A program made the position numbers and the translations under genes. Of a DNA stretch of 59,379 bases, positions 625 through 59,236 are shown one piece after another (the stretch's first letter is position 1; each line of letters begins with the position of its first letter). Location: the IMG/VR virus record IMGVR_UViG_3300020420_000015, positions 1-59,379 of that record; one strand, written 5' to 3'. The notes below the pieces were generated by a model. It did not search any database. It was not told the origin of the DNA and saw only the letters and a program-made list of their open reading frames with translations. The DNA comes from a virus (Duplodnaviria > Caudoviricetes).

Positions 625-1353
625 TCACAGTATTGTCAAATTACCGTTGACGGTAATTGTAGTTGATGAACCTATAGTCAATGGACCAATCGCTAATGCA
701 TTTTTAGTTGATGCTATTGTAGTGTTCTCACTCACACTTTGTCCATTGGTGCGAAACACAGCGGTATCAACTGTGGTATTAGTGGTCTGAAACTGCGTAG
801 CTGTAATCTCAGCCGCAAATGTACCACCACTAGACTTGCTGACTGTATCTGTCACAGTAAAAGCACGGAAGGCACGGATGACTAACTCATCGTTTACCGT
901 TGCACCAGAACTTAGTGTGATTGTGTCACCATTGCTGGCGGTAAAGTCTGAACTATCAAGATGCACACCGTTTAGATATACGTCTACATCGTTACCAGAG
1001 AAGGCCAGTATCGCACCGTTAGCATCCGCACCTGTAAACGCGGTTTGGCTTGCTGTTGCTGTATACTTAAACAACTGCATTGCAAAGCTGGTAGGCTGGT
1101 CTACGGCACGACCAAAGAAGCGTACAGTAATTACATCGCCATTAGCTGGAGCGGCAGAAAAGGTTAGTGTTGTTCCTTGCGCGGTATATGCCTTACCTAT
1201 ACCCGGCTCTTGCACTACGTTACCGATTGTTACAATTAGTGCCTCACCGCTAACAACGCTTTGTGCCAGCGTAAACGCTGTTGCGCTTCCAGTGCCTGTA
1301 AAGGTCTGGAAGCTGATGTCACCTACATTTGGGTCAATGCCTATATATGCCAT
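625..1353 (-). CDS. Tail fibre/virion structural protein (MAYIG-type N-terminus)
   Basis: Thr/Ala/Gly-rich beta repeats (TAFTL...TLTFSAAP..GD); N-terminus paralogous to 1848..2693. Confidence 0.7.
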   Translation of the reverse strand: MAYIGIDPNVGDISFQTFTGTGSATAFTLAQSVVSGEALIVTIGNVVQEPGIGKAYTAQGTTLTFSAAPANGDVITVRFFGRAVDQPTSFAMQLFKYTATASQTAFTGADANGAILAFSGNDVDVYLNGVHLDSSDFTASNGDTITLSSGATVNDELVIRAFRAFTVTDTVSKSSGGTFAAEITATQFQTTNTTVDTAVFRTNGQSVSENTTIASTKNALAIGPLTIGSSTTITVNGNLTIL

Positions 1354-1838
1354 TATCCTACTATTTCCATTAAAGTAATAAAGCTAGTCCAACGGTCACC
1401 TCTTTGACACTGTAGTGGATAACTGGTGCTATAGGACTTCGCCTGTGTTTTATAAGTAACTGCACTTGTAGTACTAGGACTATCTAATTGGCTGTGTGTG
1501 GCATACCCCCTGAAAGATATATCTCCACCTGTGTTCATGTAATTTTGATAGGTATCTGTTACCGCTGAAATATTTGTGCTTCCTCTTAAAATAACTATTG
1601 TCCCGCCGTATCTTTGAAAATAGATATGTTGATTTATCATCACAAAGATTTTGTTTGATGCCGAAGAAGGTGTAATTGATGCAGAAAGATTAGTGTCACT
1701 GAGGGTCGAAGTCGAGCCGTGAGACGAAGCCGTTGTTGTGCTACCTTGTACGACCTGTATAACAGTGCCAGTAGGCATAATCGCAGAGGTAATCGCACCA
1801 GTTGCCAAAGAGTTTGTTTTAATTTTGCTTAATGGCAT
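1353..1838 (-). CDS. Tail-fibre-associated beta protein (G.V[LI]Q...ITP...DSPSTTS.V.Y family)
   Basis: Paralogous to 2693..3295 and 58151..58696. Confidence 0.65.
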   Translation of the reverse strand: MPLSKIKTNSLATGAITSAIMPTGTVIQVVQGSTTTASSHGSTSTLSDTNLSASITPSSASNKIFVMINQHIYFQRYGGTIVILRGSTNISAVTDTYQNYMNTGGDISFRGYATHSQLDSPSTTSAVTYKTQAKSYSTSYPLQCQRGDRWTSFITLMEIVG

Positions 1839-1847
1839 TTCAAACTC

Positions 1848-2693
1848 CTATCCTACTAAAAATCCACTAAAACGAATGTCATAAGTCCCGCTATTATCTC
1901 CATAAAGATAACCGTTGGCGACATTTACGCGAATATAATCTCCAGACGTCAACTCTATAGTTCCTGAACAAGCCATATTAGGATAGCTGGTAGTACTATT
2001 AAAATAAGCATAACTATGAGTAAAAACTGTATAACTAGAGCCAGTATTTGTTGAGCGTTCAAGTTGAACTTTAACCGCCGATTGGGCGGCTACTTGACCG
2101 CCACCTGAATTACACCCTAAGGCAGAAAAATTAAAGTTATAAATGCCAGCGATAGGCACAACAAACCTATCGTTAGATATGTCAAAATGTGAACCAACAT
2201 TTGTGTGCACTGTATTAAAATTAATAACACCAGTAAAAGCTGATGTGCTAGATGAATCTTGAGCTACAAAAAAAGCTGGCCTTGCTGGCGTAAGTATGCG
2301 GCCAGTGCTATCAATCGTCATGGCTGTATTAGTGCCGCTACTGTCCTTTATCGTTGGAACATTCAAACTAGTAAACGTACCTGTGGTAGCGGACAATGCC
2401 TGATTAGGGTCATGCTCCAGCCGTGTTGTTACTTCTGCCTGACCGCGATAGATAACGTACACGTTACCTGTGCCAGAGGGCGGTGCTTCATCAAACGTCA
2501 GGGTAGTTCCTGTGGCTGTGTATGACTTACCAGAACCGGGTTCCTGTTGCACGTTGTCAACGAATACCTCAAGCTCTTCACCAGTGTTCACAGCGCGGTT
2601 AAGTGTGAACGCGGTCGCCGAACCTGTGCCGTTGAAGGACTGGCTCGTTGTCTTTGTCAGAGATTTGTTTGGTTGTGCGCCGATGTATGCCAT
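1848..2693 (-). CDS. Tail fibre protein: MAYIG N-terminal module plus C-terminal C1q-like domain
   Basis: N-terminus like 625..1353; C-terminus RPAF...FNTVHTNVGSHF...GIYNFNF...FSGFLVG like 81..617. Confidence 0.75.
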   Translation of the reverse strand: MAYIGAQPNKSLTKTTSQSFNGTGSATAFTLNRAVNTGEELEVFVDNVQQEPGSGKSYTATGTTLTFDEAPPSGTGNVYVIYRGQAEVTTRLEHDPNQALSATTGTFTSLNVPTIKDSSGTNTAMTIDSTGRILTPARPAFFVAQDSSSTSAFTGVINFNTVHTNVGSHFDISNDRFVVPIAGIYNFNFSALGCNSGGGQVAAQSAVKVQLERSTNTGSSYTVFTHSYAYFNSTTSYPNMACSGTIELTSGDYIRVNVANGYLYGDNSGTYDIRFSGFLVG

Positions 2694-3295
2694 TATACTG
2701 CTATCTCTGTTACGCTGATAAATGATGTGCCTCTTTCATATTGATAACCATCCGAATCTGATACAGTTCTATTAGTGTACCATGCATAATTTGTACCGCT
2801 TCCTTGATAAACCCCTACTTTATACGTCACTTGAGAAGTCGTTGAGGGTGTATCAAAGTAGCTGTAAATTACGTGTTCTGGCGTAGACCCTGCATTGGCA
2901 GCTTCATAAGTTAAAGATGTACCCATAAGAACACCTACTGCTCTGCCGCTAGCCGCTGGCGCACTTAACTTTGTTGAATCTCTATAAAAAAACCAAACTG
3001 AATTATATTTAGGAGAGTCCGCCGCCCACTCACCGTTTACCATTGCATCGATTCTTATAATGCTACTGGTTGATGTGGGAGTGATATTTACCGTTAAATG
3101 ACTAAATGCTACATCTGTTTGAGTTGCACAAGTAGTAGAGGTTGTGTCCGTGTACTGTGTGCGTTGTATTTGCAACACAGTGCCAGCAGGCATGGAAGCA
3201 GAGGTGATTGCACCGCTTGCTAACTGACTCGAACCTACAGAATTAGCGGGTAAAGAGGCTATTTGATTTGCGCCTATTGTACTTAATGCCATCAA
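2693..3295 (-). CDS. Tail-fibre-associated beta protein (VLQ family)
   Basis: GTVLQ...ITPTSTSS...DTPSTTSQVTYK...ISVTEI; paralogue of 1353..1838. Confidence 0.65.
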   Translation of the reverse strand: MMALSTIGANQIASLPANSVGSSQLASGAITSASMPAGTVLQIQRTQYTDTTSTTCATQTDVAFSHLTVNITPTSTSSIIRIDAMVNGEWAADSPKYNSVWFFYRDSTKLSAPAASGRAVGVLMGTSLTYEAANAGSTPEHVIYSYFDTPSTTSQVTYKVGVYQGSGTNYAWYTNRTVSDSDGYQYERGTSFISVTEIAV

Positions 3296-3621
3296 GTAAT
3301 CTCCAGTACAGACAGGGTAACATCAGCCGCTGATGCTTGACTTGCTGTTATTCTCAAGATGTCAGAAGCATTCATCACAATCTTTTGGTCGCCGCCAACT
3401 GCTACCAATGATGAACCAACAGGAACAATAGCTGATTTTACAATGTGAACATTGTCGCCATCGTTATTGATTAACTGTACATTTACCGTAATTGACACTG
3501 TTAATATATTGGCAATGTTCAAGCCGATGATTGTTGTTTCTGTCGCGCTGGGGCAGGTGTAAACATCTGCGTTGGATGTCCCTACTGCGGTGTCTGTAAA
3601 TGTTTTAAATGCGTTAGCCAT
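3292..3621 (-). CDS. Small virion structural protein
   Basis: Translationally coupled in structural operon; beta-rich. Confidence 0.6.
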   Translation of the reverse strand: MANAFKTFTDTAVGTSNADVYTCPSATETTIIGLNIANILTVSITVNVQLINNDGDNVHIVKSAIVPVGSSLVAVGGDQKIVMNASDILRITASQASAADVTLSVLEIT

Positions 3622-3625
3622 TTTT

Positions 3626-4006
3626 CTATCCCAATGCTATTGCGAATGCCAATGCATTCGGGTCTTGTTCTGTAAAACCTTGCACCGCATTACTTGCATC
3701 CAAGAACACAGCCTTTTCTGCTGGCAACGTGCAGAAAATAGTGCGAGTTCCTGATGTCCAATTAACAGCGCTATCAGAGTTACTGGACTGCAATATTGTG
3801 GTACGGGCCAAGAGTGTGCCAGATGCAGTGTAGGTTCCAATGCCAATCTCAAAGTCAGTTCCGTCCGTGCAGGCATAATAGGTAGTGTTACTATTACCTA
3901 TTTGACTAAACGCCTCAAAACCAGTTACCGCACCAGCAAGCGTATAAGTGCCTGTTCCGGTGGTGGTAGTAGTTTCTTTTATTCTGTCTTTAAGAACAAG
4001 CGCCAT
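3626..4006 (-). CDS. Virion structural/fibre anchor protein
   Basis: MALVLKDRIKETTTTTGTG...EIGIGTY motif; ends AFAIALG; operon context. Confidence 0.6.
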   Translation of the reverse strand: MALVLKDRIKETTTTTGTGTYTLAGAVTGFEAFSQIGNSNTTYYACTDGTDFEIGIGTYTASGTLLARTTILQSSNSDSAVNWTSGTRTIFCTLPAEKAVFLDASNAVQGFTEQDPNALAFAIALG

Positions 4007-15189: not shown

Positions 15190-17614
15190 CATCTATCTCC
15201 TCTGTGATTGTTTTGCCAAGCTCAATTCCATATCTCAGGTCTTCGCGCTGTCCCTCATAACGTGTTTTTGCCAAGTCCATTCCAAGTCTTGCACCCTCAC
15301 GCCGCTCTTCAGACTCAATGCGCTCTTCTTGAACCGCGATATTGGCCGCAGATTTATTCATATCTGATTGCAACTTAGCCAAATCAAGTTGCTGTTTGTG
15401 TTGGAACTCAGCTTCTTTAAGGGCAATTTCACGTTGTTGTATTTGTGTAAGCGGGTCTTGCTCCTGCTTTCTTGCCTCTTCTTCAGCCATTTCAGCTTGA
15501 TTTTGATTTAAAAGCTTTCCTGCCGCTTGTGCCGCAAGCCTAGAAATTTCTATCTCTATATCTTCTGGCAAAGGCTTGTCCTCACTAGGCATTCCCACAC
15601 CAAGATTTTTTTCTATTTCTTTTCTATACTGGAAAGCCACATGCTCAGTTATGTGTGCTGACAAAGCTGCCTGTATCGCTCCAGCAAAAGGTGACTGCCC
15701 TACAATCTCTTGTAGCTTGGGGTCCTGAGCGGCAGCAATGTGAACCTGTATGTGCGCCTCATGGTCCTGATATTTAAATGCCTTTACAGGCTCCTGTTTC
15801 AGAATAGCCATGTTTTCAGTAACAGGGTCTGAAGCCTTTACATCATCTGGTAGCTTTACGATTTGGTCTGCGTCTTTGATTCCAAGCACTTCGAGCATTT
15901 GACGATGCAGCTTACCCATGTCATAGAGATTCGGAGCCTGTTGAGCAAGTTGCATAGCCGCCTGATATTGCACGACTCTTTGTGACATGGTTGCGGCGTT
16001 GGGGTCGGAAACCGGGATAATATCAACCCTATCATCGAAATCCTCCTGACGATTAAAGTTTTCTTCTAACTGATAAGAATAGCTTGGCCCCATATAATCT
16101 TTTATTATTTTGCCCAGTATTCTAAGTTCTTTTTTGAGAGCCGCATGAAGGCGAGCCTGAACACCAGACATTACCTTCATGGAACGCTCCATTAACGCGA
16201 GCGTAGTTCCGACCGGAGCTTGCGGGTTGAGGTTTCCAACTTGTACATCAGCAACGGAGCCAATCCTTCTCCCCTCTTCCACGATATTTCCGAGAAGCTG
16301 GTATAATACTGATGATGGCTCCTTGTAAGGAAGGAATGCAATCGAGTCCCTAATTGCACCCCCCGGCACGTCCACGTCGCGGAATTCACCCGGCATGAGA
16401 GGCGAATCGTCACCTTTAATACGTAGTCCGCGAGCCTTAAGACCAGCGGGGAGATTAGAGAGTGTACCCGCATCAATAAGTTGGCGCAGAATACTTGTGG
16501 CACTTTTAGCAAGACCACCAATAAGATGAATAAGACCCGTTCCATAGAACCCAAGTCCCGGCAGGTATCTGTAGTGAACAAAGTGTTGTCTCTTACGCTT
16601 TTTAGAATCTTCCTCATACCAATTTCTCCTTATTGATAAAATGGTTAGGCTGGACTTGTCCACCGTCACCACATAAGGTCTTGCAATGCCATCAGCATCC
16701 TCAAATGGCTCTGGTAAATTTAAGTCAGCGTGAATCTCCAAAATCGTGTGTCTGTCATCATCCTCAAGAACGGCGGTTTCTCCATCAATCTCATCATACT
16801 TCTCTTGGATATCTGATTGGTCTGGCTCTGGGTCAGGTAACTCCACATCAGTATAAAAGCCATTAACCTGTAGCTCTATAATTTCATTTGCAGTCTTCTT
16901 CATCACATGTGTATATCGTGGCGCAGTCATAAGGTCTGACGCACCGTAAGAAACAACAAAATCTTCTGCTGGAACAAACATGGCGCAAGGACGCTCCATG
17001 ATTGGGTCATAGTAAACTTTTTTAAACGCAGAGCCTGCCAAAGGTAATCGAAACAGCATTTGTTCTGTTTCTTCTCGATATTCTGTCATCTCCTCTGTAA
17101 GAAGATAATTCATTTCTGTTTCTACACGGGTGGCCTGCTCCATTTTCTCTGGGTCACGCTTTCCCATAACTTTTGTACGCACTGGGCCAGCGGCAGGAAA
17201 CAATTCTCCCATAGCCTGTGCCTGAAAACGAACAACAGCCTCTGTCAACACTGGATGAAAAACACCAGCCGCGCCTGCCCAAGGCTGTGTGCGCTCTTCA
17301 ATCTTCATGCCAAGAAGGTCTAAGCCCTTGACGTAAGACCTAGCCCACTCTTTTCTAGACTCACGGTCAGCAACAAAATCATCAACTAATTCAGAAGCAA
17401 GAGAATCTAGCTCTCCTTCTTCCATATACTCAGCCAAGTTAGCATCATGCCCCGGCCCCATAATGGACTCAGCAACTTCACCCGTAAAATCAATAACCAT
17501 AGACTCATCTTCGGATTGAACGCTAACCATGTCTGGGTTTACTATTTCAACCTCAACTTCTGGAGCGTCTTCTATATCCAGATTTGCTGGACTCATTTGC
17601 TTTTCTACAGCCAT
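15167..17614 (-). CDS. Portal protein
   Basis: 815 aa downstream of terL; HP.L.EAVVRFQA, GSAFKKVYYD, PGLGFYG.GL, APVGTT motifs; coiled-coil C-terminus. Confidence 0.88.
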   Translation of the reverse strand: MAVEKQMSPANLDIEDAPEVEVEIVNPDMVSVQSEDESMVIDFTGEVAESIMGPGHDANLAEYMEEGELDSLASELVDDFVADRESRKEWARSYVKGLDLLGMKIEERTQPWAGAAGVFHPVLTEAVVRFQAQAMGELFPAAGPVRTKVMGKRDPEKMEQATRVETEMNYLLTEEMTEYREETEQMLFRLPLAGSAFKKVYYDPIMERPCAMFVPAEDFVVSYGASDLMTAPRYTHVMKKTANEIIELQVNGFYTDVELPDPEPDQSDIQEKYDEIDGETAVLEDDDRHTILEIHADLNLPEPFEDADGIARPYVVTVDKSSLTILSIRRNWYEEDSKKRKRQHFVHYRYLPGLGFYGTGLIHLIGGLAKSATSILRQLIDAGTLSNLPAGLKARGLRIKGDDSPLMPGEFRDVDVPGGAIRDSIAFLPYKEPSSVLYQLLGNIVEEGRRIGSVADVQVGNLNPQAPVGTTLALMERSMKVMSGVQARLHAALKKELRILGKIIKDYMGPSYSYQLEENFNRQEDFDDRVDIIPVSDPNAATMSQRVVQYQAAMQLAQQAPNLYDMGKLHRQMLEVLGIKDADQIVKLPDDVKASDPVTENMAILKQEPVKAFKYQDHEAHIQVHIAAAQDPKLQEIVGQSPFAGAIQAALSAHITEHVAFQYRKEIEKNLGVGMPSEDKPLPEDIEIEISRLAAQAAGKLLNQNQAEMAEEEARKQEQDPLTQIQQREIALKEAEFQHKQQLDLAKLQSDMNKSAANIAVQEERIESEERREGARLGMDLAKTRYEGQREDLRYGIELGKTITEEIDDAGSDKG

Positions 17615-19897: not shown

Positions 19898-20110
19898 ATG
19901 AAAGAATTTGCTATTGCATTGAGCATTTGGACCCACACAGGCACAGAATGGGTTTTGGAAAGTCAAGACGTGTTAAAGGAAACATCCTATCAAGAACATT
20001 GCGAATTTTCATCTTATGAAGAGATGAAACATGAGGGTAGTGAAAATAGATATTTTAAAGTGATTGTTCAATGTTATCCTGTTTCTTGCTCTGAAAAGGA
20101 ACTATGCTAA
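19898..20110 (+). CDS. Hypothetical protein
   Basis: GGGAGAG SD upstream; first of three coupled + strand ORFs. Confidence 0.6.
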   Translation: MKEFAIALSIWTHTGTEWVLESQDVLKETSYQEHCEFSSYEEMKHEGSENRYFKVIVQCYPVSCSEKELC

Positions 20111-20359
20111 ATGTTTAAGGCCTTTATAGTAGCTTGTCACATAGCTAATCCTGCTGACTGCATACTCATAAGTGATGACCGTGGCCCTTATGACACTGAG
20201 GAAGAATGCAAAACTCGTATTGTAGAAATGATTGAAGACTCGATAGATGTATTCAGAATGATACAAGTTCCCATGATATTTAAGCTGACAAGCTGTGTAC
20301 ACCCAGACGATATGGAATTTACAAATGTCAACATTACTGACCAATATTCCAAACGCTAA
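20111..20359 (+). CDS. Hypothetical Cys-containing protein
   Basis: MFKAFIVAC...C...D.RGPY.TEEEC..R. Confidence 0.65.
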   Translation: MFKAFIVACHIANPADCILISDDRGPYDTEEECKTRIVEMIEDSIDVFRMIQVPMIFKLTSCVHPDDMEFTNVNITDQYSKR

Positions 20360-20960
20360 AGTTTATGTTCGCAAAGAGTATCTTATGGACCACCAAGAGG
20401 GGCATGGTGAGTTCATAGAGGGCCATTGGGTAACAGCAAAGTCCATTCCCGGCAGAGCTTTCTACTTTGAGACATACCTGCCGCAATATGGCGCTTTATA
20501 TGATAAATTACCGATTAGTGCCTTTTTATCAGAGCCAAAAACCCCAGAACCAGACCTGTCCCTGCCAAATCTGCAATTCTGGAACTGCATGGACTATGGC
20601 GTTACGTCTATTTACAAGCAGTTTATCGGGTCTATGGACTTTGAAGTCCGAACCAGAGACTCTGGTAATTTTTACGGCACATATATCTGCACATTAGACA
20701 ACTACCATGCACAGGCAGATGAAATAGACTACTCAACGTCCGAAATTCCCGAAGAACACAAGTCATTTAACCTGATAGAGCTAGAAAACGGGCAATATGC
20801 ACTGTACCCAAACAACAGAATGCGGGTATATGACAACTCTCTAACCCCAGAAAACCCGTTAATGCCCGATTTTAAGGTATCCACCGACTATTATCAGGTA
20901 GAATCAGGCAACAAATACCGCCTAGGGGACACAGAAGAGTATTTTTACGAAAAAAATTAG
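20325..20960 (+). CDS. Conserved phage hypothetical protein
   Basis: YVRKEYL...KSIPGRAFYFE.YL..YGALYDKLPISAF...PNNR; ATG 20325 preferred over GTG 20295. Confidence 0.75.
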   Translation: MSTLLTNIPNAKVYVRKEYLMDHQEGHGEFIEGHWVTAKSIPGRAFYFETYLPQYGALYDKLPISAFLSEPKTPEPDLSLPNLQFWNCMDYGVTSIYKQFIGSMDFEVRTRDSGNFYGTYICTLDNYHAQADEIDYSTSEIPEEHKSFNLIELENGQYALYPNNRMRVYDNSLTPENPLMPDFKVSTDYYQVESGNKYRLGDTEEYFYEKN

Positions 20961-21053
20961 TACGAGGGTTAGGATTCCTACCCCTATTTTCCCGAAAAAC
21001 ACCCGGGGGGAAAATAAACTATTTGTATCATGGTACAAATTAGGGGGTGGGGG

Positions 21054-21302
21054 TCATTGTATAGTGGGTTTAGTGGTATATTCCCAGTAATCCCATATCT
21101 CACGCCTTCTCTTCTCCACGATAAATAGAAGTATATTCCTCTCTATTTCGCTCAGAGACGCCCAAGCATCTCTTTCGGCGGGTGTCATACTACATATCAG
21201 ACAAATGCTCTCAGTGGGGCTTAAAACGCCAACAAACCTACAATCATGCTGGCATGGAAGGTCTATGTTTTTTCTTTTGTCATCGGATGTGTAAATCATC
21301 AT
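21054..21302 (-). CDS. DUF1289-like small Cys protein
   Basis: PC...C...ICLIC.MT..E...W pattern; start moved to ATG at 21302. Confidence 0.5.
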   Translation of the reverse strand: MMIYTSDDKRKNIDLPCQHDCRFVGVLSPTESICLICSMTPAERDAWASLSEIERNILLFIVEKRRREIWDYWEYTTKPTIQ

Positions 21303-21389
21303 GTAGTCCGCGTGGGCGGGGCCAGCCCGACAAACGGGTGTGGGGGTAGGGTGGGGTCCGTACATACGCCAAAGTTTGCGTGGGTAGGG

Positions 21390-21860
21390 TCACTCGCCCA
21401 TCAGCAACGCCAAACGCCTCTGCAAATCGGCCTCAATCTCAGACGCTGACCTGTTTGAATTTTCATCTGTCACCACATTATCTGAAAACATACCTATGGA
21501 CCTTCCCAACTGGGTGAGGGCTGAGACCCGTGACGTATCACTGCCAGACACTGCCTCTTCCTTGAGCCTATCAGTCACCCATATTCTCAGGCGGTCCTCG
21601 TCTGTCCGCTTTCGTGCGGTGATTTCCTCAGTTATGGACTTTATCCTCTGTGCAACCTTGGTGTTCTCTGTTGCCAGCTTCGAGGCATTAGCCCATACAG
21701 TGCTTGGTTTTGTGCCTTCCTTAACATCGTAAGCCTGACGGTAGGCTTCTGTCAGTGTTTCACCTTGTGCAACCATCTGGCAAAAGTGTTCCTGCTTGGC
21801 TGTAAGTTTATCACCTGCATCTGTCACTATTGATAGGTGAGGGTGTTTATCTTTTGGCAT
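21390..21860 (-). CDS. terS: Terminase small subunit
   Basis: LTAKQEHFC..VA.G.T..EAYRQAY...ASKL...V..RI...AL..LGR.IGMF. Confidence 0.8.
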   Translation of the reverse strand: MPKDKHPHLSIVTDAGDKLTAKQEHFCQMVAQGETLTEAYRQAYDVKEGTKPSTVWANASKLATENTKVAQRIKSITEEITARKRTDEDRLRIWVTDRLKEEAVSGSDTSRVSALTQLGRSIGMFSDNVVTDENSNRSASEIEADLQRRLALLMGE

Positions 21861-22396
21861 GTTCTATTCCCTTTGTTCTGCCACCATGCGCTATCGCTTG
21901 GTCGGGCTTTCACATTCGTACTATGGAACAAATTATACCAGACCCCATGCAGTTGACGCTACCCATATGCCTTTTAAAGGCGATTTAAAGCCCCGTGAGT
22001 GCCTATCTCTATTTTTGCTCATAATCATACACGGGTATGTCGAGAAACGCCTGTACGGGCAAATAAGGTATTTTGAGCATAAAAATTCGCAGTTTCCCGT
22101 ACAATAATTTGGGGCCATTAAACGTCTATAAATTAAATAAAGAAAATAACTCAAAAGACTTGAATAATACTCAGAATAGTGTATTTAGAGGGTATATTCT
22201 TTTTTTTCAAATTTTGGAGGCCATCGCTACACTTACCGGACACGCCCACGGGGGCAGGGGCTAGCAACCCCGACCATACTGGACCACCACCTATTTACCG
22301 CTTCGATAGCGTCCGGCTTATGCGCAAAATGGGGGTGTAGACTGAGGCAGACATGTTTTGCTGTAACGTATCGGTTTAGAGTACGCCTTGCTTATA

Positions 22397-22449
22397 TCCT
22401 GTCGCTGGCATTGGTAGCCAGTTATGAAGAGACACCAAACGAAACAGGA
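22397..22449 (+). ncRNA. Candidate type III hammerhead ribozyme with variant core
   Basis: Stem III TCCTGT/ACAGGA, GTC site (C22403), stem I GCTGGC/GCCAGT, core TATGAAGA (canonical CTGANGA), 1-bp stem II, GAAA; loop I TTGGT complementary to loop II ACCAA. Confidence 0.6.
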
Positions 22450-22457
22450 GACGTTTT

Positions 22458-22631
22458 ATGTATAAAGTAATAGCTGAAGCACACAATATGAGTGCAGATA
22501 GTACATGTAGAACACTGCAAGATGCTAAGAATGCTTGCGGTGTTATGCTTGAGAAGTTGGGTTATCAGAAAAAAGATATCCACATCATCACGCCTGAAGG
22601 CAAAAAATTATACCTCGTTCCTCAAAAATAG
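22458..22631 (+). CDS. 57-aa early protein (missing from ORF track)
   Basis: AGGAG SD 7 nt upstream; MYKVIAEAHNMSAD...LYLVPQK. Confidence 0.7.
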   Translation: MYKVIAEAHNMSADSTCRTLQDAKNACGVMLEKLGYQKKDIHIITPEGKKLYLVPQK

Positions 22632-22640
22632 GAGAATACA

Positions 22641-22820
22641 TTGGTTGAATATTTCCACATTTATGTAAATGGCGGCCTCACATATGTGGGGCTGGTTTTA
22701 TCTCAGGCCGTACAGGTCATGGATAAATTAAAGGCTGATGGCAACAAGCCAGTTATGAAGTCTTATATGCTGGACCCTGTCGTGCTTGCGGCAATGTCAC
22801 AATCGTATGATGACAACTAA
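22641..22820 (+). CDS. 59-aa early protein, TTG start (missing from ORF track)
   Basis: AGGAG SD; MVEYFHIYVNGG...SQSYDDN; stop abuts the hammerhead at 22821. Confidence 0.65.
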   Translation: MVEYFHIYVNGGLTYVGLVLSQAVQVMDKLKADGNKPVMKSYMLDPVVLAAMSQSYDDN

Positions 22821-22885
22821 GCTACCTGATGATGGGCGCGTAGGACACGCCCGAAACACCGCGCCTTGCGGTGTCGTAGCGTCCT
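22821..22885 (+). ncRNA. Type I hammerhead ribozyme with pseudoknot; predicted cut 22875/22876
   Basis: GCTAC-CTGATGA-T-GGGCG[CGTAGGACA]CGCCC-GAA-ACACCGC[GCCTT]GCGGTGT-C-GTAGC; loop II AGGAC pairs with 3' GTCCT. Confidence 0.92.
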
Positions 22886-22915
22886 GCTACATTCCCTACA
22901 ATTTTGGAGACAAAA

Positions 22916-23587
22916 ATGCAAAACGTAACAAAAATTTTAGACATGGACACACTTAACACAATCAATGCCAATGAGAAAAAAATTGGCAAGCTTAACGGTA
23001 AGGCTTCCGCGATTACAGAAGAACGCCAGAAGCTAAAAATGACTAGCTACTGTCTGCTAGTGTCCGGCATGGCAGGGGCTAAGTTGGATAAAGGTAATTT
23101 TAAGTCTGCCGACAGGACCAACCTGAAGGGTGATTTAATGGACGCTGGCGGCCTGACAGATAGCATGGCCGAAAAGTACATCAAAAATGTCGCTGGTGCT
23201 AAAAATAAGCTTAAGGACCACGGCATTAACTCAGATAACATCACACCAGCTGGTGTTGCTGAAATCTTCGAGGACCAAGGTATTACCTCAGAAGCCAAGC
23301 TTATAAAGTTAATCTCTGGTGACAGTGCAAAGTCTAAGGTAGAGCAATTAGTTGACAAGGTTGCTGGCAAGCGTTCGCGCAAGAAAGATAAAGACGGCAA
23401 CAGTGTAGACGGTGATGCTTGGTTGGGTGGTTTGACAGATGAAGATTTATCTGAATTCCACAACAAACTGGCAGATGCTTTAAGGCTTCGCGGTGAAATA
23501 AAGAAAGCCTCTCAGGCGGCTGGTGATAAGGCTCAGGCTGAGATTGAACAAGTCAATGCAATGTGTGAGCAATTAGGCGCGGCATAG
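22916..23587 (+). CDS. Hypothetical helical early protein bracketed by two hammerheads
   Basis: GGAG SD before ATG 22916 (in frame with track ORF 22904); no recognisable domain. Confidence 0.8.
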   Translation: MQNVTKILDMDTLNTINANEKKIGKLNGKASAITEERQKLKMTSYCLLVSGMAGAKLDKGNFKSADRTNLKGDLMDAGGLTDSMAEKYIKNVAGAKNKLKDHGINSDNITPAGVAEIFEDQGITSEAKLIKLISGDSAKSKVEQLVDKVAGKRSRKKDKDGNSVDGDAWLGGLTDEDLSEFHNKLADALRLRGEIKKASQAAGDKAQAEIEQVNAMCEQLGAA

Positions 23588-23649
23588 CTACCTGACGAGC
23601 CAGCTTAGGACACTGGCGAAACTACCCCACGGGGTAGTCGTAGCGTCCT
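23587..23649 (+). ncRNA. Type I hammerhead ribozyme with pseudoknot; predicted cut 23639/23640
   Basis: GCTAC-CTGACGA-GCCAG[CTTAGGACA]CTGGC-GAA-ACTACCC[CACG]GGGTAGT-C-GTAGC; canonical core; loop II AGGAC pairs with 3' GTCCT. Confidence 0.95.
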
Positions 23650-23678
23650 GCTACATTCAACAACTTATGGAGAAAGTC

Positions 23679-23888
23679 ATGAAAACTTTTGTTCATTTTG
23701 TCGGTATGAGGACTGATGCTGAATACTTAGCCGCAGTCAGAGTTTACGGCAAACCTGATTTCATCCATCTGTATCATGACCGCAGAATGTATGGGGATAT
23801 TGATGCAGATAGGGATATTGTGGTGCTTGGTTCAAAAGGCAGGGATTTACCCTGTGAATATTCAGACCAAGACCATGAGAGACATTAA
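23679..23888 (+). CDS. Small early protein
   Basis: GGAG SD; VHFVG.R...Y..AVRVYG.PDFIH..HD.R. Confidence 0.75.
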   Translation: MKTFVHFVGMRTDAEYLAAVRVYGKPDFIHLYHDRRMYGDIDADRDIVVLGSKGRDLPCEYSDQDHERH

Positions 23889-23910
23889 CAAAAGCATGGG
23901 AGATTTTTAC

Positions 23911-24156
23911 ATGCAGAAACATAGAAGAGACCTACTGTCAGGGTTTTATGGCAGATTTTTCACTGGCTTTTTTACAAAGCTAGACGGTACTGAACGGCCT
24001 GTCTGGGGTGTCATTAAGAATGACCCCAACGTGCCGGACCACTTGTGTGTCGTTTATGACATGCGGTTGAAGCAGTACAGGCGTTTCAATATTGAACTGC
24101 CTTTTAATATTCGTTCAGGTAAAGACTTTATCTGTGCGGCTCATACCAACGCATAA
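23911..24156 (+). CDS. Small SH3/Sm-like (WYL_2/DUF2693-like) protein
   Basis: FF...FTK.DGTER...G...VVYD....YRRF; GGGAG SD before ATG 23911. Confidence 0.55.
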   Translation: MQKHRRDLLSGFYGRFFTGFFTKLDGTERPVWGVIKNDPNVPDHLCVVYDMRLKQYRRFNIELPFNIRSGKDFICAAHTNA

Positions 24157-24168
24157 CGGGAGAAAAAA

Positions 24169-25215
24169 ATGCGTATATCTCAAACTGTTCCTATAATTCA
24201 GAAGGCTATAGAAAGCCAGCTTAATTTTCGTATTTCAAACGGTGGGCGTGATGCTCAACGGCTTATCCCATACTTGCAGGGCAAGGCAGGGCTAGGCAAA
24301 ACCACCTCAATAATCAGCGTATGTGAGGCCAATGATAACTGGTCTTATTTCATTTTATCGCTGGCCCAGTTTGATGCTGGTGAACTTATGGGCGTTATTG
24401 CGATGGACGGTGATAATGCTAAACGTCTGAAGCCACATTGGCTGGTGCATGTTGAACAGCTAGCATCCGATAGTGATGTGGTGGTTCTGTTCTGCGATGA
24501 ATTGGCCCAAGCCCCCGTGGCGAATATGAACGTGGCCCGTCAGTTAATTAACGAGTTACGATGTGGTGATTTTATGTTGCCGGATAATGTCGTTATCGTT
24601 GCGGCTGGCAATCGTGTATCGGACAGGGCTGGGGCAAACAATATCCCAACACATATGAAAGACTGCCTGATGTTTTTGGACGTTGAGGCAGATTTAGATG
24701 ACGCTGTTGGGTATTTGTCAAGCAAAGGTATAAGCCCCGTCATTACTGGGTTTATGCGGTTCCGGCCTGAGTTGCTTAACAAGGTGGACCGTGACGCAGA
24801 CGCTAATCCATCACCCCGTTCTTATGAGAGACTTGATACAGTGCTTTCATGGGGCTTGCCAGAACCTGTTGAAAAAGAGGCAGTTGCTGGCATTTTGGGC
24901 AGGGGTGTATGTGCTGAGTTTTACGGTTACAAGCCTATATTCGACAGTGCCATCACTGTTGATGAGGTGCTTGCTAATCCTACATCAGCACCCGTGCCGG
25001 AAGAACCAGCAGTCTGCTACGCTGTAACATCTGCACTGGCCCACGCCATGACAGATAAAAATGTCGGGGCCATTACCCAGTATCTTGCCCGTTTTGTGCA
25101 TAAAGAATTTTATGTGCTGGCAATGAAAGATGCTTTCAAGCGTACACCTTCACTGAAACAAACACCCGAATTTAGGGCGTTTCTATTAGAGCATGGCGCA
25201 GAACTCATGCTCTAA
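24169..25215 (+). CDS. MoxR-like AAA+ ATPase
   Basis: GKAGLGKT (Walker A), VLFCDE (Walker B), AAGNR, SPRS. Confidence 0.88.
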   Translation: MRISQTVPIIQKAIESQLNFRISNGGRDAQRLIPYLQGKAGLGKTTSIISVCEANDNWSYFILSLAQFDAGELMGVIAMDGDNAKRLKPHWLVHVEQLASDSDVVVLFCDELAQAPVANMNVARQLINELRCGDFMLPDNVVIVAAGNRVSDRAGANNIPTHMKDCLMFLDVEADLDDAVGYLSSKGISPVITGFMRFRPELLNKVDRDADANPSPRSYERLDTVLSWGLPEPVEKEAVAGILGRGVCAEFYGYKPIFDSAITVDEVLANPTSAPVPEEPAVCYAVTSALAHAMTDKNVGAITQYLARFVHKEFYVLAMKDAFKRTPSLKQTPEFRAFLLEHGAELML

Positions 25216-25277
25216 GACATGGGGGCAGGCATGGTCCTGCCCCAATTCATACCATAGTACAAATCGGAGACACAGAT

Positions 25278-26432
25278 ATGGATGCAAATACCAAAATTTC
25301 ACGGGCCAAGACACGGCTCTTATTGGACCAGCCTTTCTGGGGTACGTTCACAATGGGTACGCCATTCTATGCTGATGACAAGGTGGACACTGCTTGCACC
25401 AACGGTCAACACATTAAATGGAACCCGTCTTTTGTTGATACCTTAGAGCCAACCAATACTATTTTCTTGGTTGCTCACGAAATAGGCCACATAGTCTTTC
25501 AGCATTGTAACCCCATTAAAGAAATCGATGGCAAGCCTGTGGACCCTGAGGTTCACAATATGGCACTGGATTATGTGCTTAATGCTATTCTCATAGATGG
25601 CAATGTAGGTGAAATGCCGGAAGGTGGTTTATACGAGCCTAGATATCACGGCTGGCCTTGGATTAAAGTTTACCGTGAATTAATTGCAATGGATAAAGAT
25701 GAACGCCCAAAGTCTCAGCCTTGGGGTGGCAATGTCGGCAATCCTGAGGACGATAACGGTAAGCCCTTGCAGGGCAGTCAGCTTGAACAGCACAACATGG
25801 ATATCGAAAGGCGTGTGTTCATGGCGGCAGAGGCCGCTAAGTCTGCTGGTAAATTACCAGCTGGTATTGATGACCTCGTCACAAAAATGAGACGTTCACG
25901 GGTAGATTGGCGTGATGTCTTTAATCGGTTTATCGGTGGTGAACAGCCGGACGATTACACTTGGCGCAGACCACAGAAAAGAATGTGGTTCCAGCATGGC
26001 GTGTACATGCCTTCAGTAGATAAGGTTGGTGTCGGGGATATTGTCGTTGCTGTAGATAGTTCAGGCTCAACTGGCGGACATCATCGGGAATATTTCTTTG
26101 GTGTTCTTAATCAGGTCATAGAAGACCACAATCCAACTTCTGTTACAATCATTACTTGTGATGCTGAGGTGCAAACAGTCAGGCGTTACGAGCAGGGTGA
26201 CATTGTAGAAGACATGGACGTTAAGGGTGATGGTGGCACGAGAGTAGAACCAGTGTTCAGATATGTCAGTGAAGAAAACATTAAGTGCAATGCTCTTGTT
26301 TATCTCACAGACATGGGCATCTGGGATTTTCCAGACAATAAGCCTGATTACCCCGTTCTGTGGGTATCAACTGACCCCGACTGTGCGGACGCACCTTTTG
26401 GGGAAACAACACGCATACAGGTGGCGGCATAA
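25278..26432 (+). CDS. Metallopeptidase-like plus vWA domain protein (DUF2201 family)
   Basis: TACTNG, AHEIGH zincin motif, VDSSGS MIDAS, GGT, YLTD. Confidence 0.85.
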   Translation: MDANTKISRAKTRLLLDQPFWGTFTMGTPFYADDKVDTACTNGQHIKWNPSFVDTLEPTNTIFLVAHEIGHIVFQHCNPIKEIDGKPVDPEVHNMALDYVLNAILIDGNVGEMPEGGLYEPRYHGWPWIKVYRELIAMDKDERPKSQPWGGNVGNPEDDNGKPLQGSQLEQHNMDIERRVFMAAEAAKSAGKLPAGIDDLVTKMRRSRVDWRDVFNRFIGGEQPDDYTWRRPQKRMWFQHGVYMPSVDKVGVGDIVVAVDSSGSTGGHHREYFFGVLNQVIEDHNPTSVTIITCDAEVQTVRRYEQGDIVEDMDVKGDGGTRVEPVFRYVSEENIKCNALVYLTDMGIWDFPDNKPDYPVLWVSTDPDCADAPFGETTRIQVAA

Positions 26433-26466
26433 TGCCGCTACCTACCTTCAATAACAGGAGACAAAA

Positions 26467-27300
26467 ATGAAAGATGAAATTAGAGATAAGAGTGTCGCAC
26501 AATATAAATACTTGAAATTTTGTTTGCGGCAAATCCGGCTCACAATGGATAATCACAGGGAAATGTGTGACATTAAATTGTTAGCTGATGTAATAAAAGG
26601 CGGTAAATATGATTGGCAAAATGGCGGTGTACTGACCCGTGATGAGCGCAAAGAATTGCAATCTGAGTTTGATAGAAAGGCAGGGCAATATTGCGCTTTT
26701 GAAAAGACGGTTGCTATATACATCAGTCAACTAGCCGACAGTGTAAGTTCAATTAGAAGAAGCTTCAAGGCTCATCAGACATACAATCCTATCAAGCAAG
26801 TCAAAAAAACCTCATTAGATAGGGCCAGAGAAGTGCTTGACAATGGATTTAAAAGAACCAGCACCGCTGTAGTCTGTAATGGGCCGGAAGCTGAACAGTT
26901 GGAAATAGAAGGCGATACTGATTACAGCAGGGTCAACTATGTAAACATACCTGTCCACTGGGTCAGTTCAGTATATAACAAGGGCTTGGGGCTAGTGCAT
27001 TCACCCAAGGGATTGAGGTTTATTGCGAGAGCAATTCCGGCAGATATCCCGTGGGTAAATGATGAAAACATGAATTGCTACAAGGCCGTCAGCATAGGCA
27101 GTCACGATAAAAAATGTTTTGTAGAAGAGGGCTGGATAGTGACGCATCAGGCATCTGTAATTAATGATGTTCAGCCCCTAGTCCATCCGGCAGACAGGAA
27201 GACTGTAACGCCCCATGCCTTCAATGAAAATCTACAGAAGGCTGTTAAGCTTATGAAGTCACGCACCTATAAACACCTTACAAAAATGCTGGACAAATAA
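26467..27300 (+). CDS. Hypothetical protein
   Basis: 277-aa ORF with AGGAG SD. Confidence 0.75.
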   Translation: MKDEIRDKSVAQYKYLKFCLRQIRLTMDNHREMCDIKLLADVIKGGKYDWQNGGVLTRDERKELQSEFDRKAGQYCAFEKTVAIYISQLADSVSSIRRSFKAHQTYNPIKQVKKTSLDRAREVLDNGFKRTSTAVVCNGPEAEQLEIEGDTDYSRVNYVNIPVHWVSSVYNKGLGLVHSPKGLRFIARAIPADIPWVNDENMNCYKAVSIGSHDKKCFVEEGWIVTHQASVINDVQPLVHPADRKTVTPHAFNENLQKAVKLMKSRTYKHLTKMLDK

Positions 27301-27301
27301 A

Positions 27302-27688
27302 ATGATTAAGCACGGCACTGTAAGGGCTGATGGAAAAATGTTTTGGGGATACCACAAGCATGCCAAAAATGGCGAGGAGTGGTGTACCCCATCTGCATTT
27401 ATCAGGCGTAAATCAAAATCTAGAGCGAGGCAATGGATGAACCGCAGACGCAGAACCCATTGGCTTAATAAATATAAACAGCACCACGGGTGTTGTTATT
27501 GTGGTTATGATGATAACGGTATAGCCTTGCAGTTTCATCATACAGGTGACAAAGCATTTAATGTTTCTGACGCACGTTCATACTCACTAAGAAAACTTTT
27601 TAGTGAAATTAGAAAGTGTTTAGTTATCTGCTCTAATTGTCACGCAATCGAAACAACCAGACTACAACAGGCAAGAGGTAAATTATGA
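27302..27688 (+). CDS. HNH endonuclease-like protein
   Basis: C..CGY...ALQFHH...EIRKC..ICSNCH. Confidence 0.75.
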   Translation: MIKHGTVRADGKMFWGYHKHAKNGEEWCTPSAFIRRKSKSRARQWMNRRRRTHWLNKYKQHHGCCYCGYDDNGIALQFHHTGDKAFNVSDARSYSLRKLFSEIRKCLVICSNCHAIETTRLQQARGKL

Positions 27689-27993
27689 CTAAGGATAATA
27701 AAATTTGTACTACCGTACAAAATAAAGTTAATTGCATCGGCCAAACACAACAGGAAATCAATGATGCAAATCATGTGGTAACGATTATCTGGGGTGTGGA
27801 GGGCATTAAAAAAGAGACATTTGGTTTTAGTGACATTGTGTCTTATCATGCCTTTTTATTGGGGGTCGATGCCGCATGCGGATGGATGAAATATGAGGTA
27901 GAGGCAGAGCCTTATTATCATGCCGAACCTTTTGATGCTGACCATCCCAAAACACTAAACTTGACTATGGAGGATGAGCCTAATGATGATTAG
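27685..27993 (+). CDS. Hypothetical protein
   Basis: Coupled ORF; TIIWG...F.LGVDAACGW. Confidence 0.65.
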   Translation: MTKDNKICTTVQNKVNCIGQTQQEINDANHVVTIIWGVEGIKKETFGFSDIVSYHAFLLGVDAACGWMKYEVEAEPYYHAEPFDADHPKTLNLTMEDEPNDD

Positions 27994-28231
27994 CTGGCAC
28001 ACGGCCCCAAGGCATAAATATAAGGGGTATGTTTACAAACCTGACGTAGATGAATACGATGATGGAAACAGAAAGGCTTCTCATAACGTATACGCTGAGG
28101 GTAAAGAAAACTTTATGCATACATTGCCAGAGTTTTATATTCACGCATCACCGTATAGTTTTTTAAGCTTCGAGCAGTTTAAAAATCACGTTGATAAACA
28201 TCTAACAGATAATCGGGAGTTTAGACCATGA
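27974..28231 (+). CDS. Hypothetical protein
   Basis: Coupled ORF in early operon; start may be 27983. Confidence 0.65.
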   Translation: MSLMMISWHTAPRHKYKGYVYKPDVDEYDDGNRKASHNVYAEGKENFMHTLPEFYIHASPYSFLSFEQFKNHVDKHLTDNREFRP

Positions 28232-57644: not shown

Positions 57645-58154
57645 TTATCCTACCAGTTGTCCGCGAAAATATGCGTATCTGTAAGCAGCATTAGCGTAAG
57701 CATCAGTCCCGTTATCCGACTTTGCGTAAATAGAAATATAGTCATTAACGGCTAGTGTGGCGTAGACACAATACTCTCCGTTTGTGCCGTATGCGCCACC
57801 TGACGGCTCTACTCTCAATTCAAACTCATTGAGACTGCTTCCATTTTTGTAAAATCTAAACCGATAAACGGTGGAACTAGTATTAGCAATTGATGCTACT
57901 GCAAAACTATAAGTCCCAGCGACAGGTACAGTAAATCTACCTGTCGATGTGTTGTAGTGACCTCCTACATTTACAAGAGCGGTGCTAAAAGACGTAAGTT
58001 CAACATAGCTAGTTGTTAAAGAAATAGTGCTATCGGCAACAGCCATAAAAATTGGTTTTACGGGCTGAAGCACTCTACCGCCGCTATCAACCGTTAGCGC
58101 ACTGTTCGAGTTCGTTGGGTCTTGGATTTCGGTGACTTTTAATATGCTAGTCAT
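57645..58154 (-). CDS. C1q-like domain protein
   Basis: KPIF...NVGGHYNTSTGRFTVPVAGTYSF...LAVNDYI...FRGQLVG. Confidence 0.8.
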   Translation of the reverse strand: MTSILKVTEIQDPTNSNSALTVDSGGRVLQPVKPIFMAVADSTISLTTSYVELTSFSTALVNVGGHYNTSTGRFTVPVAGTYSFAVASIANTSSTVYRFRFYKNGSSLNEFELRVEPSGGAYGTNGEYCVYATLAVNDYISIYAKSDNGTDAYANAAYRYAYFRGQLVG

Positions 58155-58696
58155 GCACCAATCTCCATTAAAGTCATTGTTGAAATGGGGGTTCCAAAGT
58201 AAGTGGTTGCATCAGTGTCGTTATGAGTTCTATTAACATAAACAGTATACGATGTGCTATAACCGCCAATGTCTATACTGTATTGAACAGCACTGGTTGT
58301 AGAAGGAGAGTCTAAATATTCAACTGCCCCTGCTATCATATCATATTGTGCGTCACCAGCGGAGTACTGAGAATATGAATAGGTAACTCGTTTTCTGTTA
58401 GAACCGCGTTGATTGCTTAACGCATCGTCAATAGGGGTTCCGTCTCTTAAAATTCTTCCTCTAAATGAAAAGTATTGTGATGCCAAACATAAAGAAGCCT
58501 TTACTAAAATTTTACTGTTAGTTGATTTGGGTGTGATATTACACCTCAGTCCTGTAACTTCAGCAAAATTAGGGCCGATAGCAGTTGAGAAACTGTCCTT
58601 AAAAACTGTCTGTTGTATCTGCAACACATGACCCGGAATTTCCACCCCGTTGTTTGTTGTCTTCTCATTTATTGTATCTACGAATAATGTTGACAT
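58151..58696 (-). CDS. Tail-fibre-associated beta protein (VLQ family)
   Basis: GHVLQ...ITPKSTNSKILV...LDSPSTTSAVQY...TLMEI. Confidence 0.7.
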   Translation of the reverse strand: MSTLFVDTINEKTTNNGVEIPGHVLQIQQTVFKDSFSTAIGPNFAEVTGLRCNITPKSTNSKILVKASLCLASQYFSFRGRILRDGTPIDDALSNQRGSNRKRVTYSYSQYSAGDAQYDMIAGAVEYLDSPSTTSAVQYSIDIGGYSTSYTVYVNRTHNDTDATTYFGTPISTMTLMEIGA

Positions 58697-58704
58697 TGTT
58701 TTCT

Positions 58705-59229
58705 CTAAGTTGCGTGAACAAGATGTCCCCAGAAAATTGACTGCCTATTTGAGGAGTCATGAATAGTGCAATTTTCTTCAGATTGAAAATATGCCTCTAC
58801 ATAATCAGATGAACCGTTCATCTGTAGCAAGCCTGTGGGCATGGGATATTCACCATTTGTAAAAGTATCTGATGCAGTTTGAAACTGGTTCATCAAGGCC
58901 GTTTCATCTCCCGCACCGTTTTTTCTTATATTAAAGGCAACAAGAGTTACAGTGCTATTTGATATTCTGACTGTGCCGCCGAATAAATACCAACCCGCAA
59001 CCTGTGGCGTGTATCTATGATTAGATGAATCCCAATAACTACCAGTATCAAGCACCACATTTTCCCATGTTATCTTCGCAAAGGCTGATGCTGTATAACT
59101 TTGGTCTGTATCAGTAGCATTTACTTGAAAGGCTACAGCTTTAGGTATAACAAGACCACTGCTATTAATTGTTATAGCACTTGTACCTGCCGCAGTTCTT
59201 ATCTGGTCTACATTTAATATAGAAGCCAT
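58705..59229 (-). CDS. C1q-like domain protein (allele B of 81..617 locus)
   Basis: Same MASILNVD start and same flanking genes as 81..617; AF...RYTPQVAGWYLF...DYVEAY...FWGHLV. Confidence 0.75.
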   Translation of the reverse strand: MASILNVDQIRTAAGTSAITINSSGLVIPKAVAFQVNATDTDQSYTASAFAKITWENVVLDTGSYWDSSNHRYTPQVAGWYLFGGTVRISNSTVTLVAFNIRKNGAGDETALMNQFQTASDTFTNGEYPMPTGLLQMNGSSDYVEAYFQSEENCTIHDSSNRQSIFWGHLVHAT

Positions 59230-59236
59230 CTGTGCC

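Follow-up and report, generated by a model that had tools for sequence, protein, structure and literature searches.

The role of hammerhead ribozymes in bacteria and phages was still largely elusive according to a 2019 review (PMC6765202). Where prophages carry multiple hammerheads, these often lie on either side of a single gene or a short run of genes, and Perreault et al. (2011) proposed that they process long phage transcripts into gene-length mRNAs; the expected fragments were obtained in vitro for three prophage clusters and in vivo for one (PMC3088659). In this work we describe a module of two type I hammerheads and one type III relative in an uncultured marine tailed phage, IMG/VR virus record IMGVR_UViG_3300020420_000015. 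The record was analysed in full (59,379 bases, rated complete) and is called the window below. The two type I elements, named A and B, are canonical, bona fide hammerheads whose cleavage is predicted, and we lean towards the reading that the module processes and stabilises polycistronic phage mRNA. The locus is new, but the interpretation is a hypothesis that already exists. To it the locus family adds a conserved order of types, a covarying take-over hairpin, the placement of a ribosome binding site within stem III and core variants that form a natural series. The supplements of Perreault et al. (Dataset S1, Figures S1-S8) may already contain related marine sequences. A literature search, with supplements outside its scope, found no description of the take-over hairpin or of the core with an inserted base, and we do not claim that they are unpublished.

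The prophage clusters of Agrobacterium tumefaciens (the ardA triple), Azorhizobium caulinodans and Clostridium scindens (PMC3088659) share several features with the window. In both, a phage operon has several hammerheads of more than one type on its sense strand, spaced over about 2 kb and placed around single genes; stems I and II are joined by pseudoknots, and processing of a polycistronic RNA has been proposed. The window family differs in that it comes from uncultured marine phages, in the conserved order III -> I -> I, in the covarying product hairpin after each type I element and in a Shine-Dalgarno (SD) sequence placed within stem III of the type III element.

The early mRNA of phage T7 is cut between cistrons by RNase III, which leaves terminal hairpins on the products; the enzyme is a host protein, and the ends are 5'-phosphate and 3'-OH. 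The window RNA, in contrast, would be self-cleaving, and its products would carry a 5'-OH and a cyclic phosphate. The HHphage ribozyme of haloviruses HF1 and HF2 has a mapped 5' end near its cleavage site (PMC3088659). It differs from the window elements in core variation, host domain and salt dependence, and the window has an SD inside stem III and a conserved structured leader before the ribozyme. By analogy of parts, the closest functional counterpart of the type I copies is RiboJ (PMC7536230), in which a hammerhead is followed by a 23-nt hairpin and then by a ribosome binding site, so that upstream context is stripped and the 5' untranslated region (UTR) is standardised; cleaved RiboJ mRNA was modelled as longer lived, the uncleaved mRNA decaying faster. 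RiboJ was engineered from a satellite-virus ribozyme and its hairpin does not reuse a stem I strand, whereas the phage hairpin and stem I are mutually exclusive. The glmS ribozyme (PMC6765202) is also a self-cleaving 5' UTR RNA whose cleavage determines what becomes of the mRNA behind it, as is proposed here, but it has a different fold, needs a metabolite and leads from cleavage to decay; no ligand is indicated for the window elements.

Methods

Folds, conservation, covariation and positions relative to genes were read directly from the sequences. Type I relatives were collected from IMG/VR with patterns derived from the window's two copies, which gave 19 and later 41 stretches, and a covariance model of the type I element (R1) was built from the first of these sets. 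R1 detected 38 full copies when run on the window together with 35 loci, and another 22 when 18 additional loci were searched; 47 of the sequences are distinct. Covariation was evaluated on an alignment of 30 distinct type I rows from IMG/VR phage contigs (A3).

Type III relatives were searched with a pattern for the outer part of the element, which returned 32 IMG/VR stretches; together with the window these loci hold 33 instances. The type III model (R2) added one more, and 26 distinct copies were parsed. Stem III is invariant in this set because the search pattern fixed it.

Results

Two canonical type I hammerheads at gene junctions

The ribozyme elements of the window and the tails of the type I copies are the following.

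22397..22449, plus strand: type III hammerhead relative, predicted cut after C22403; R2 score 77.5 bits, the window copy itself being in the model
22821..22880, plus strand: hammerhead A, type I, predicted cut after C22875; R1 score 101.9 bits, the window copy itself being in the model
22881..22890, plus strand: tail of hammerhead A; its GUCCU(GC) can base-pair with loop II at 22842-22846, or at 22840-22846 in the extended form
23587..23644, plus strand: hammerhead B, type I, predicted cut after C23639; R1 score 88.7 bits
23645..23654, plus strand: tail of hammerhead B, with the same words as the tail of copy A

Read from the sequence, A and B have the same layout: a 5-bp open stem I (GCUAC/GUAGC), the core box, a 5-bp stem II with a 9-nt loop, GAAA, a 7-bp stem III, U-C and the 3' strand of stem I. 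Their parts are located as follows.

Hammerhead A: stem I 22821-22825/22876-22880; CUGAUGA 22826-22832; extra U 22833; stem II 22834-22838/22848-22852; GAA 22853-22855; stem III 22856-22862/22868-22874; C17 at 22875
Hammerhead B: stem I 23587-23591/23640-23644; CUGACGA 23592-23598; stem II 23599-23603/23613-23617; stem III 23621-23627/23632-23638; C17 at 23639

The core C3 U4 G5 A6 N7 G8 A9, as defined by Perreault et al. (2011), is present in both copies. Copy A carries an extra U (22833) between A9 and position 10.1, and so do 34 of the 41 parsed relatives. The remaining conserved positions, namely G12 A13 A14, the A15.1-U16.1 pair and an H at position 17, are found in all three elements, position 17 being C22403, C22875 and C23639, respectively.

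A pattern combining the core with stem I matched the window at A and B only, with 0.13 matches expected by shuffling and two matches reached in 1 of 100 shuffles. A stricter hammerhead descriptor gave 0.09 matches per shuffled window; it misses copy A owing to the extra U after A9. For each copy folded in isolation, the minimum-energy structure is the hammerhead. The two share an identical stretch of 22 nt (23637-23658 and 22873-22894, repeat family D10) that spans the predicted cut, and stems II and III of B differ from those of A through fully compensated changes.

In A3, the hammerhead fold plus pseudoknot was paired in 99.1% of 641 cells, and 14 of its 22 pairs were changed on both sides. 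None of 500 shuffles reached the observed values, and alignments slid out of register were 26-55% paired. Stems I, II and III were each 99.3-100% paired, with four pairs per stem changed on both sides; these compensated changes are not a product of the search patterns. An earlier note on this DNA had counted three hammerheads at this locus, and for 22821-22880 and 23587-23644, canonical type I and covarying, the assignment is borne out; for 22397-22449, which has a variant core, it is not.

Loop II (UAGGACA) can form a pseudoknot with the 5-7 bases that follow stem I. This pairing was found in 97.2% of cells, two of its five pairs being changed on both sides: the words AGGAC/GUCCU are replaced by GAGAC/GUCUC and, once, by AGGCA/UGCCU. 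It comprises at least 4 bp in 40 of the 41 parsed type I copies (6 of the 47 distinct copies were not parsed). Pseudoknots of this kind are needed for fast cleavage and have been reported in all three hammerhead types (PMC3088659).

The earlier note also stated that the type I copies begin at the upstream stop codon, and this is confirmed: A starts directly after the TAA (22818-22820) of the open reading frame (ORF) 22641-22820, and B overlaps by one base the TAG (23585-23587) of ORF 22916-23587. The distance from the end of stem I to the likely start codon is 35 nt in both, to ATG 22916 for A and ATG 23679 for B, or 22 nt for B if ATG 23667 is used. The predicted cuts would fall exactly between cistrons and touch no ORF. 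The cut positions C22875 and C23639 given in the note agree with the sequence, and the fragment sizes of 472 and 764 nt that it derived are arithmetically right.

A second hairpin that excludes stem I

After the pseudoknot bases, the type I copies carry a second copy of the 5' word of stem I, so that the sequence reads GUAGC-GUCCU-GCUAC. In copy A, GCUAC (22886-22890) can pair with GUAGC (22876-22880) in a hairpin flush with the predicted new 5' end. This tail hairpin and stem I are mutually exclusive, since both use the same GUAGC. The hairpin was paired in 99.3% of cells, four of its five pairs were changed on both sides, and it covaries with stem I. All five pairs can form in 40 of the 41 parsed copies, which have seven different stem I words; when tails were swapped among copies as a control, the mean was 21.7 and the maximum 29 of 41. 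Calculated without the pseudoknot, hammerhead and tail hairpin come out equal in energy (-27.4/-27.3 and -23.1/-23.1 kcal/mol). Adding the pseudoknot favours the active fold by about -6.4 kcal/mol, while the hairpin of the product is worth -4.8 kcal/mol.

On the minus strand of IMG/VR contig L168, four tandem type I hammerheads lie within 2.8 kb (1132-3890). The two weakest of them (31 and 22 bits) have wholly different stem I, pseudoknot and tail words and the same three-part design. A partial R1 match in the window at 57933-57972 (plus strand, 20.8 bits, E 0.01) has words resembling stem I and the tail hairpin, with no stems II and III and no core; it is antisense to the local genes and is a chance match or a relic.

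Recurrence in related contigs

The ribozyme family is present in at least 50 IMG/VR contigs. The earlier note had proposed to look for the same arrangement in related phages, and the order III -> I -> I on one strand was found in 11 sources, 8 of them distinct, with spacings of 283-1466 nt between the type III and the type I element and 567-1322 nt between the type I copies. One contig carries three type I copies and another four. GGAG and ATG follow the tail in all 25 listed type I copies. Among 13 contigs with at least two type I copies, 10 have copies that differ in their pseudoknot and/or stem I words (L003, L007, L008, L021, L023, L037, L163, L168, L170 and L171), some of the contigs being near-duplicates.

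Outside the family, a blastn search with copy A against 50,697 phage records gave two chance matches and nothing else. R1 accepted none of 80 genome-contig stretches among the matches listed (at least 120), a result that is uninformative on hosts or prophages.

A type III relative with a variant core

The element at 22397-22449 has the following parts, all on the plus strand.

22397-22402/22444-22449: stem III (UCCUGU/ACAGGA)
22403: C17
22404-22409/22417-22422: stem I hairpin, 6 bp
22411-22415/22434-22438: pseudoknot between loop I and loop II, 5 bp (UUGGU/ACCAA)
U22423 A22424 U22425: linker replacing C3-U4
22426-22430: G5-A9
22431/22440: stem II, one G-C pair
22441-22443: G12-A14

Its CUGANGA box reads UAUGAAGA (U-A-U-G-A-A-G-A, 22423-22430), without C3 and with one base too many. 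Among the 26 distinct type III copies, 9 have the canonical C-U at the same place and 17 a longer linker: UAU in 8, UUU in 5, CAU in 1 and UAUU in 3, two of these three with an inserted hairpin. Both core classes keep U4, G5, A6, A9, G12-A14, the A15.1-U16.1 pair and C17. G8 is replaced by A in exactly three copies, all with the linker UUU. If the first linker base is taken as position 3, positions 3 and 8 can pair in all 23 copies with linkers of 2-3 nt (C-G in 10, U-A in 3 and U.G in 10). In the alternative register, with the base next to U4 as position 3, an A stands opposite G8 in nine copies, including that of the window. The former register fits the natural U3-A8 covariation of Perreault et al., who described such variants as natural and active and found pseudoknots and a 1-bp stem II in active ribozymes (PMC3088659). 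Every one of the 26 distinct copies has a type III pseudoknot of 3 bp or more, built from 11 different word pairs; 12 types of stem I occur.

Because C3 is missing in the window copy while 9 of the 26 homologues keep C3-U4, we file 22397-22449 as a hammerhead-derived core variant, of a lineage that the alignment indicates to be under continued constraint on the catalytic bases. The probability that the window's element cleaves at a useful rate is, in our estimate from these sequences, a little above one half.

Two further observations were made with the type III searches. The copies at L007 8607-8675 (plus strand) and L036 7294-7361 (minus strand) have an extra 5-bp hairpin between stem I and the core linker, which would make a four-helix junction, unusual for a hammerhead. 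A weak R2 match in the window at 15780-15832 (minus strand) lacks the core and was treated as chance or a relic.

A probably structured leader and a Shine-Dalgarno sequence around the type III element

Two features border the type III element.

22205..22396, plus strand: GC-rich conserved leader upstream of the type III element
22446..22460, plus strand: SD and start of the first ORF, AGGAG at 22446-22450 with its first four bases in the 3' strand of stem III, and ATG at 22458-22460

The earlier note had placed all three elements at gene junctions; the type III element actually lies between an untranslated leader and the first ORF. Seven bases separate AGGAG from ATG 22458, and an ATG or GTG is found 8-17 nt after the stem III CAGG in 25 of the 26 distinct type III homologues. 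After a cut, stem III would remain as a 6-bp intermolecular helix of -7.9 kcal/mol.

The leader contains the invariant hairpins GCCC-N4-GGGC and GGGG-CUAGCAA-CCCC (22244-22271) and the conserved AGACUGAGG. Of 36 sources, 16 have the two-hairpin motif, and in each of these it precedes the type III element by 126-170 nt; other type III relatives have different GC-rich hairpins 2-4 nt before the ribozyme. A further leader hairpin, at 22367-22385, covaries. Indels of 1-2 nt among relatives indicate that the leader is not coding; it had no Rfam match at E<=10 and no tRNA by the tRNA model. It is probably a structured untranslated RNA, which would be the 5' product if the type III element cuts. A link between the leader motif and the variant core was considered and rejected (variant cores, 11 with and 11 without the motif; canonical cores, 3 with and 7 without).

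Genome and operon setting

The large terminase of the window shares 52-58% identity with its counterparts in phage 023Pt_psg01, phage DSL-LC04 and the Pelagibacter phages HTVC027P and HTVC023P, and for this reason the source was assigned to an uncultured marine tailed phage. The window also encodes a small terminase, portal, tail fibre, primase/helicase, exonuclease and Sak-like annealing protein. A row of plus-strand ORFs extends from 22458 to about 28231, divergent from the small terminase gene (21390-21860, minus strand), and the ribozymes stand at its start. The three elements lie within 1.25 kb, all on the plus strand among plus-strand ORFs, as in the clustered phage hammerheads defined by Perreault et al. 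(2011); their position on the sense strand of a co-oriented gene row is as the earlier note had described. Its designation of the operon as early is unsupported: the row starts opposite the small terminase gene and encodes a MoxR-like ATPase, a DUF2201 protein and unknowns. The ORFs next to the ribozymes are the following.

22458-22631 and 22641-22820, plus strand: two small ORFs (57 and 59 aa) on the predicted 472-nt fragment
22916..23587, plus strand: 223-aa ORF flanked exactly by both type I hammerheads, on a predicted 764-nt monocistronic RNA (22876-23639)
23679..23888, plus strand: first ORF after hammerhead B, 69 aa from ATG 23679 with GGAG at 23670, or 73 aa if ATG 23667 is used

The 57-aa and 59-aa ORFs and the first ORF after hammerhead B had no match in PHROG or Pfam. 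The DNA at 22642-22813 is 90-93% identical in contigs L006, L008 and L018. The 223-aa protein gave a weak PHROG match alone and no Pfam match, and its nearest Atlas clusters are viral hypothetical proteins. Further downstream (24169-26432, plus strand), a MoxR-like AAA ATPase (phrog_1297) stands beside a DUF2201 metallopeptidase/VWA-like protein, a pairing for which the protein libraries searched state no phage role.

No promoter scoring at least 9 of 12 was found on the plus strand between 21937 and 22397; TTGAAT-16-TATTTA (22160-22187), promoter-like by eye, is weak and was not relied on. The ORF at 20295-20960 (plus strand) matches phrog_3704, for which record annotations vary between ferredoxin, PurM and regulator; its DNA is 67-73% identical to Synechococcus and Prochlorococcus myovirus genes and is the sole part of 20001-28000 that matches cultured phages. 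The ends of the record repeat imperfectly (1-82 with 58620-58701 and 574-765 with 59186-59377, 98% and 91% identity). This points either to population variants that overlap in the assembly or to a terminal repeat that has diverged, with a genome unit of some 58.6 kb.

Discussion

The earlier note had proposed that the hammerheads cut the operon transcript into discrete stabilised mRNAs. The sense-strand position, the bona fide type I copies, the end structures and the recurring order speak for this proposal; its extension to the third element is weakened by the non-canonical core of that element, and the idea itself had already been published. Cleavage, product release, stabilisation and the effect on translation are what we infer in the scheme that follows. 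The rightward transcript would carry the type III relative in its 5' UTR and the two type I hammerheads bracketing the third gene. The type I copies would fold during transcription, their active shape being held by the 5-bp stem I and the 5-7-bp pseudoknot, and would cut after C22875 and C23639. Each upstream product would then end in the hairpins of stems II and III with a 2',3'-cyclic phosphate. In the downstream product the second GCUAC would capture the freed GUAGC, placing the new 5'-OH flush on a hairpin; this take-over would free the product, block re-ligation and hide the end from 5'-end-dependent nucleases. The design would amount to a one-way switch, with the active fold first, then the cut, and then a hairpin starting exactly at the 5'-OH. 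The 223-aa gene would thereby obtain an mRNA of its own, and the genes that follow would each be preceded by a standard leader of 35 nt. A cut in the type III element would remove the structured leader and leave a product whose 5'-OH is flush on the stem I hairpin, and loss of the 5' strand of stem III would free the SD of the first gene. With a core of U3 and G8 plus one inserted A, this element may be slow or conditional. The predicted product end structures fit a stabilising role.

Several points weigh against this reading. After a cut, stem I and the pseudoknot would still join both products by 10-12 bp, so that product release is an assumption. A 5'-OH end can signal decay in hosts with RNase J, as with the glmS ribozyme (PMC6765202). 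The third element, with C3 missing, falls outside the canonical core of Perreault et al. (2011), and in fold energy it does not stand out from shuffles (z -0.42). As the search patterns fixed the core and also portions of both stem I and the tail, the lack of variation at these places is to some extent built in. Alignment A3 was likewise fitted to a model of the stems, one that contained neither the pseudoknot nor the tail hairpin. Searches with R1 and R2 over about 40 kb of each of the nearest cultured phages, HTVC027P and 023Pt_psg01, gave no match. A search with the Rfam hammerhead models, which the earlier note had named as a check, missed all three elements: Rfam gave nothing at gathering score anywhere in the window, and at E<=10 its sole match was a wrong-register Hammerhead_3 of 17.6 bits against a threshold of 48.5. 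Neither did any hammerhead model give E<=5 on five relatives, which included canonical cores; since canonical-core relatives are missed as well, this failure reflects the reach of the models rather than the RNA.

For the third element, the possibility that it does not cleave, or does so too slowly, has to be taken seriously even though we think it rather unlikely. It would then be a folded translational operator or 5' stabiliser whose stem III pairs with the SD and whose shape is kept for structural reasons. The absence of C3, the linker one base too long, a fold energy no better than that of shuffles, the overlap of SD and stem III and the variation of the inserted base in close relatives (UUU in L024, UAU in L029) would all fit such a role. 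A purely structural role would not hold the catalytic bases, however, and the unpaired U4, G5, A6, A9, G12-A14 and C17 are invariant in 26 of 26 copies, which counts against it. So does the change of G8 to A in three copies, each with U as the first linker base, as a catalytic 3-8 pair predicts; U3-A8 variants are natural and active (PMC3088659). A bolder proposal, which we hold to be very doubtful, makes the element a natural conditional hammerhead: the U3.G8 wobble and the inserted base would render it slow, and the leader or a bound factor or ligand would gate folding and cutting, so that release of the leader and unmasking of the SD act as an operon-wide switch. We know of no natural ligand- or factor-gated hammerhead.

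Other explanations concern the module as a whole. The hammerheads might lower expression rather than secure it, by uncoupling genes from the promoter-proximal RNA, exposing a 5'-OH to RNase J-type decay and setting a fixed low downstream ratio. The glmS precedent and the suggestion that ribozyme processing could yield transcripts of different stability (PMC6765202) lend this some weight, and the host may have RNase J. We nevertheless consider it unlikely: a covarying hairpin starts right at each new 5' end that is predicted, and each tail is followed by a standard SD and ATG, which points to a design for protecting and translating the product, not for destroying it. It is less probable again that the junction repeats, identical words of 22-32 nt, serve mainly as recombination linkers that shuffle gene cassettes, with cleavage secondary or selfish. 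The 22 nt identical at both window junctions would be expected of such linkers, the same ribozyme words flank different genes across contigs at spacings of 283-1466 nt, and variation of the flanked genes was noted by Perreault et al. (PMC3088659); yet a catalytic core, compensatory changes in stems II and III, a covarying pseudoknot and a fixed strand, all of which are present here, would be superfluous in a linker. Finally, the 764-nt RNA might be circularised, or the flanking RNAs spliced, by the reverse hammerhead reaction or by an RtcB-type ligase acting on the 5'-OH and cyclic phosphate. The window copies do share their stem I, pseudoknot and tail words, so that the ends of the excised RNA could rebuild one hammerhead. 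In 10 of 13 multi-copy contigs, however, the words of the copies differ, which would prevent cross-assembly, and Perreault et al. report having sought spliced or circular products and detected none (PMC3088659); we regard this as extremely improbable.

Conclusions

Under the processing and stabilising reading, the family would follow three design rules: the active shape is kept by a pseudoknot, the stem I strand is taken over after the cut by a covarying hairpin, and the ribosome binding site is located in stem III or at a fixed distance past the tail. From these rules specific mutants can be derived, so that the idea of mRNA processing by phage hammerheads becomes testable in reporter assays. 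The type III core variants form a natural series at the catalytic 3-8 pair, with C-G, U.G with an inserted base, and U-A. As a whole, the family resembles a natural version of the ribozyme insulators of synthetic biology.

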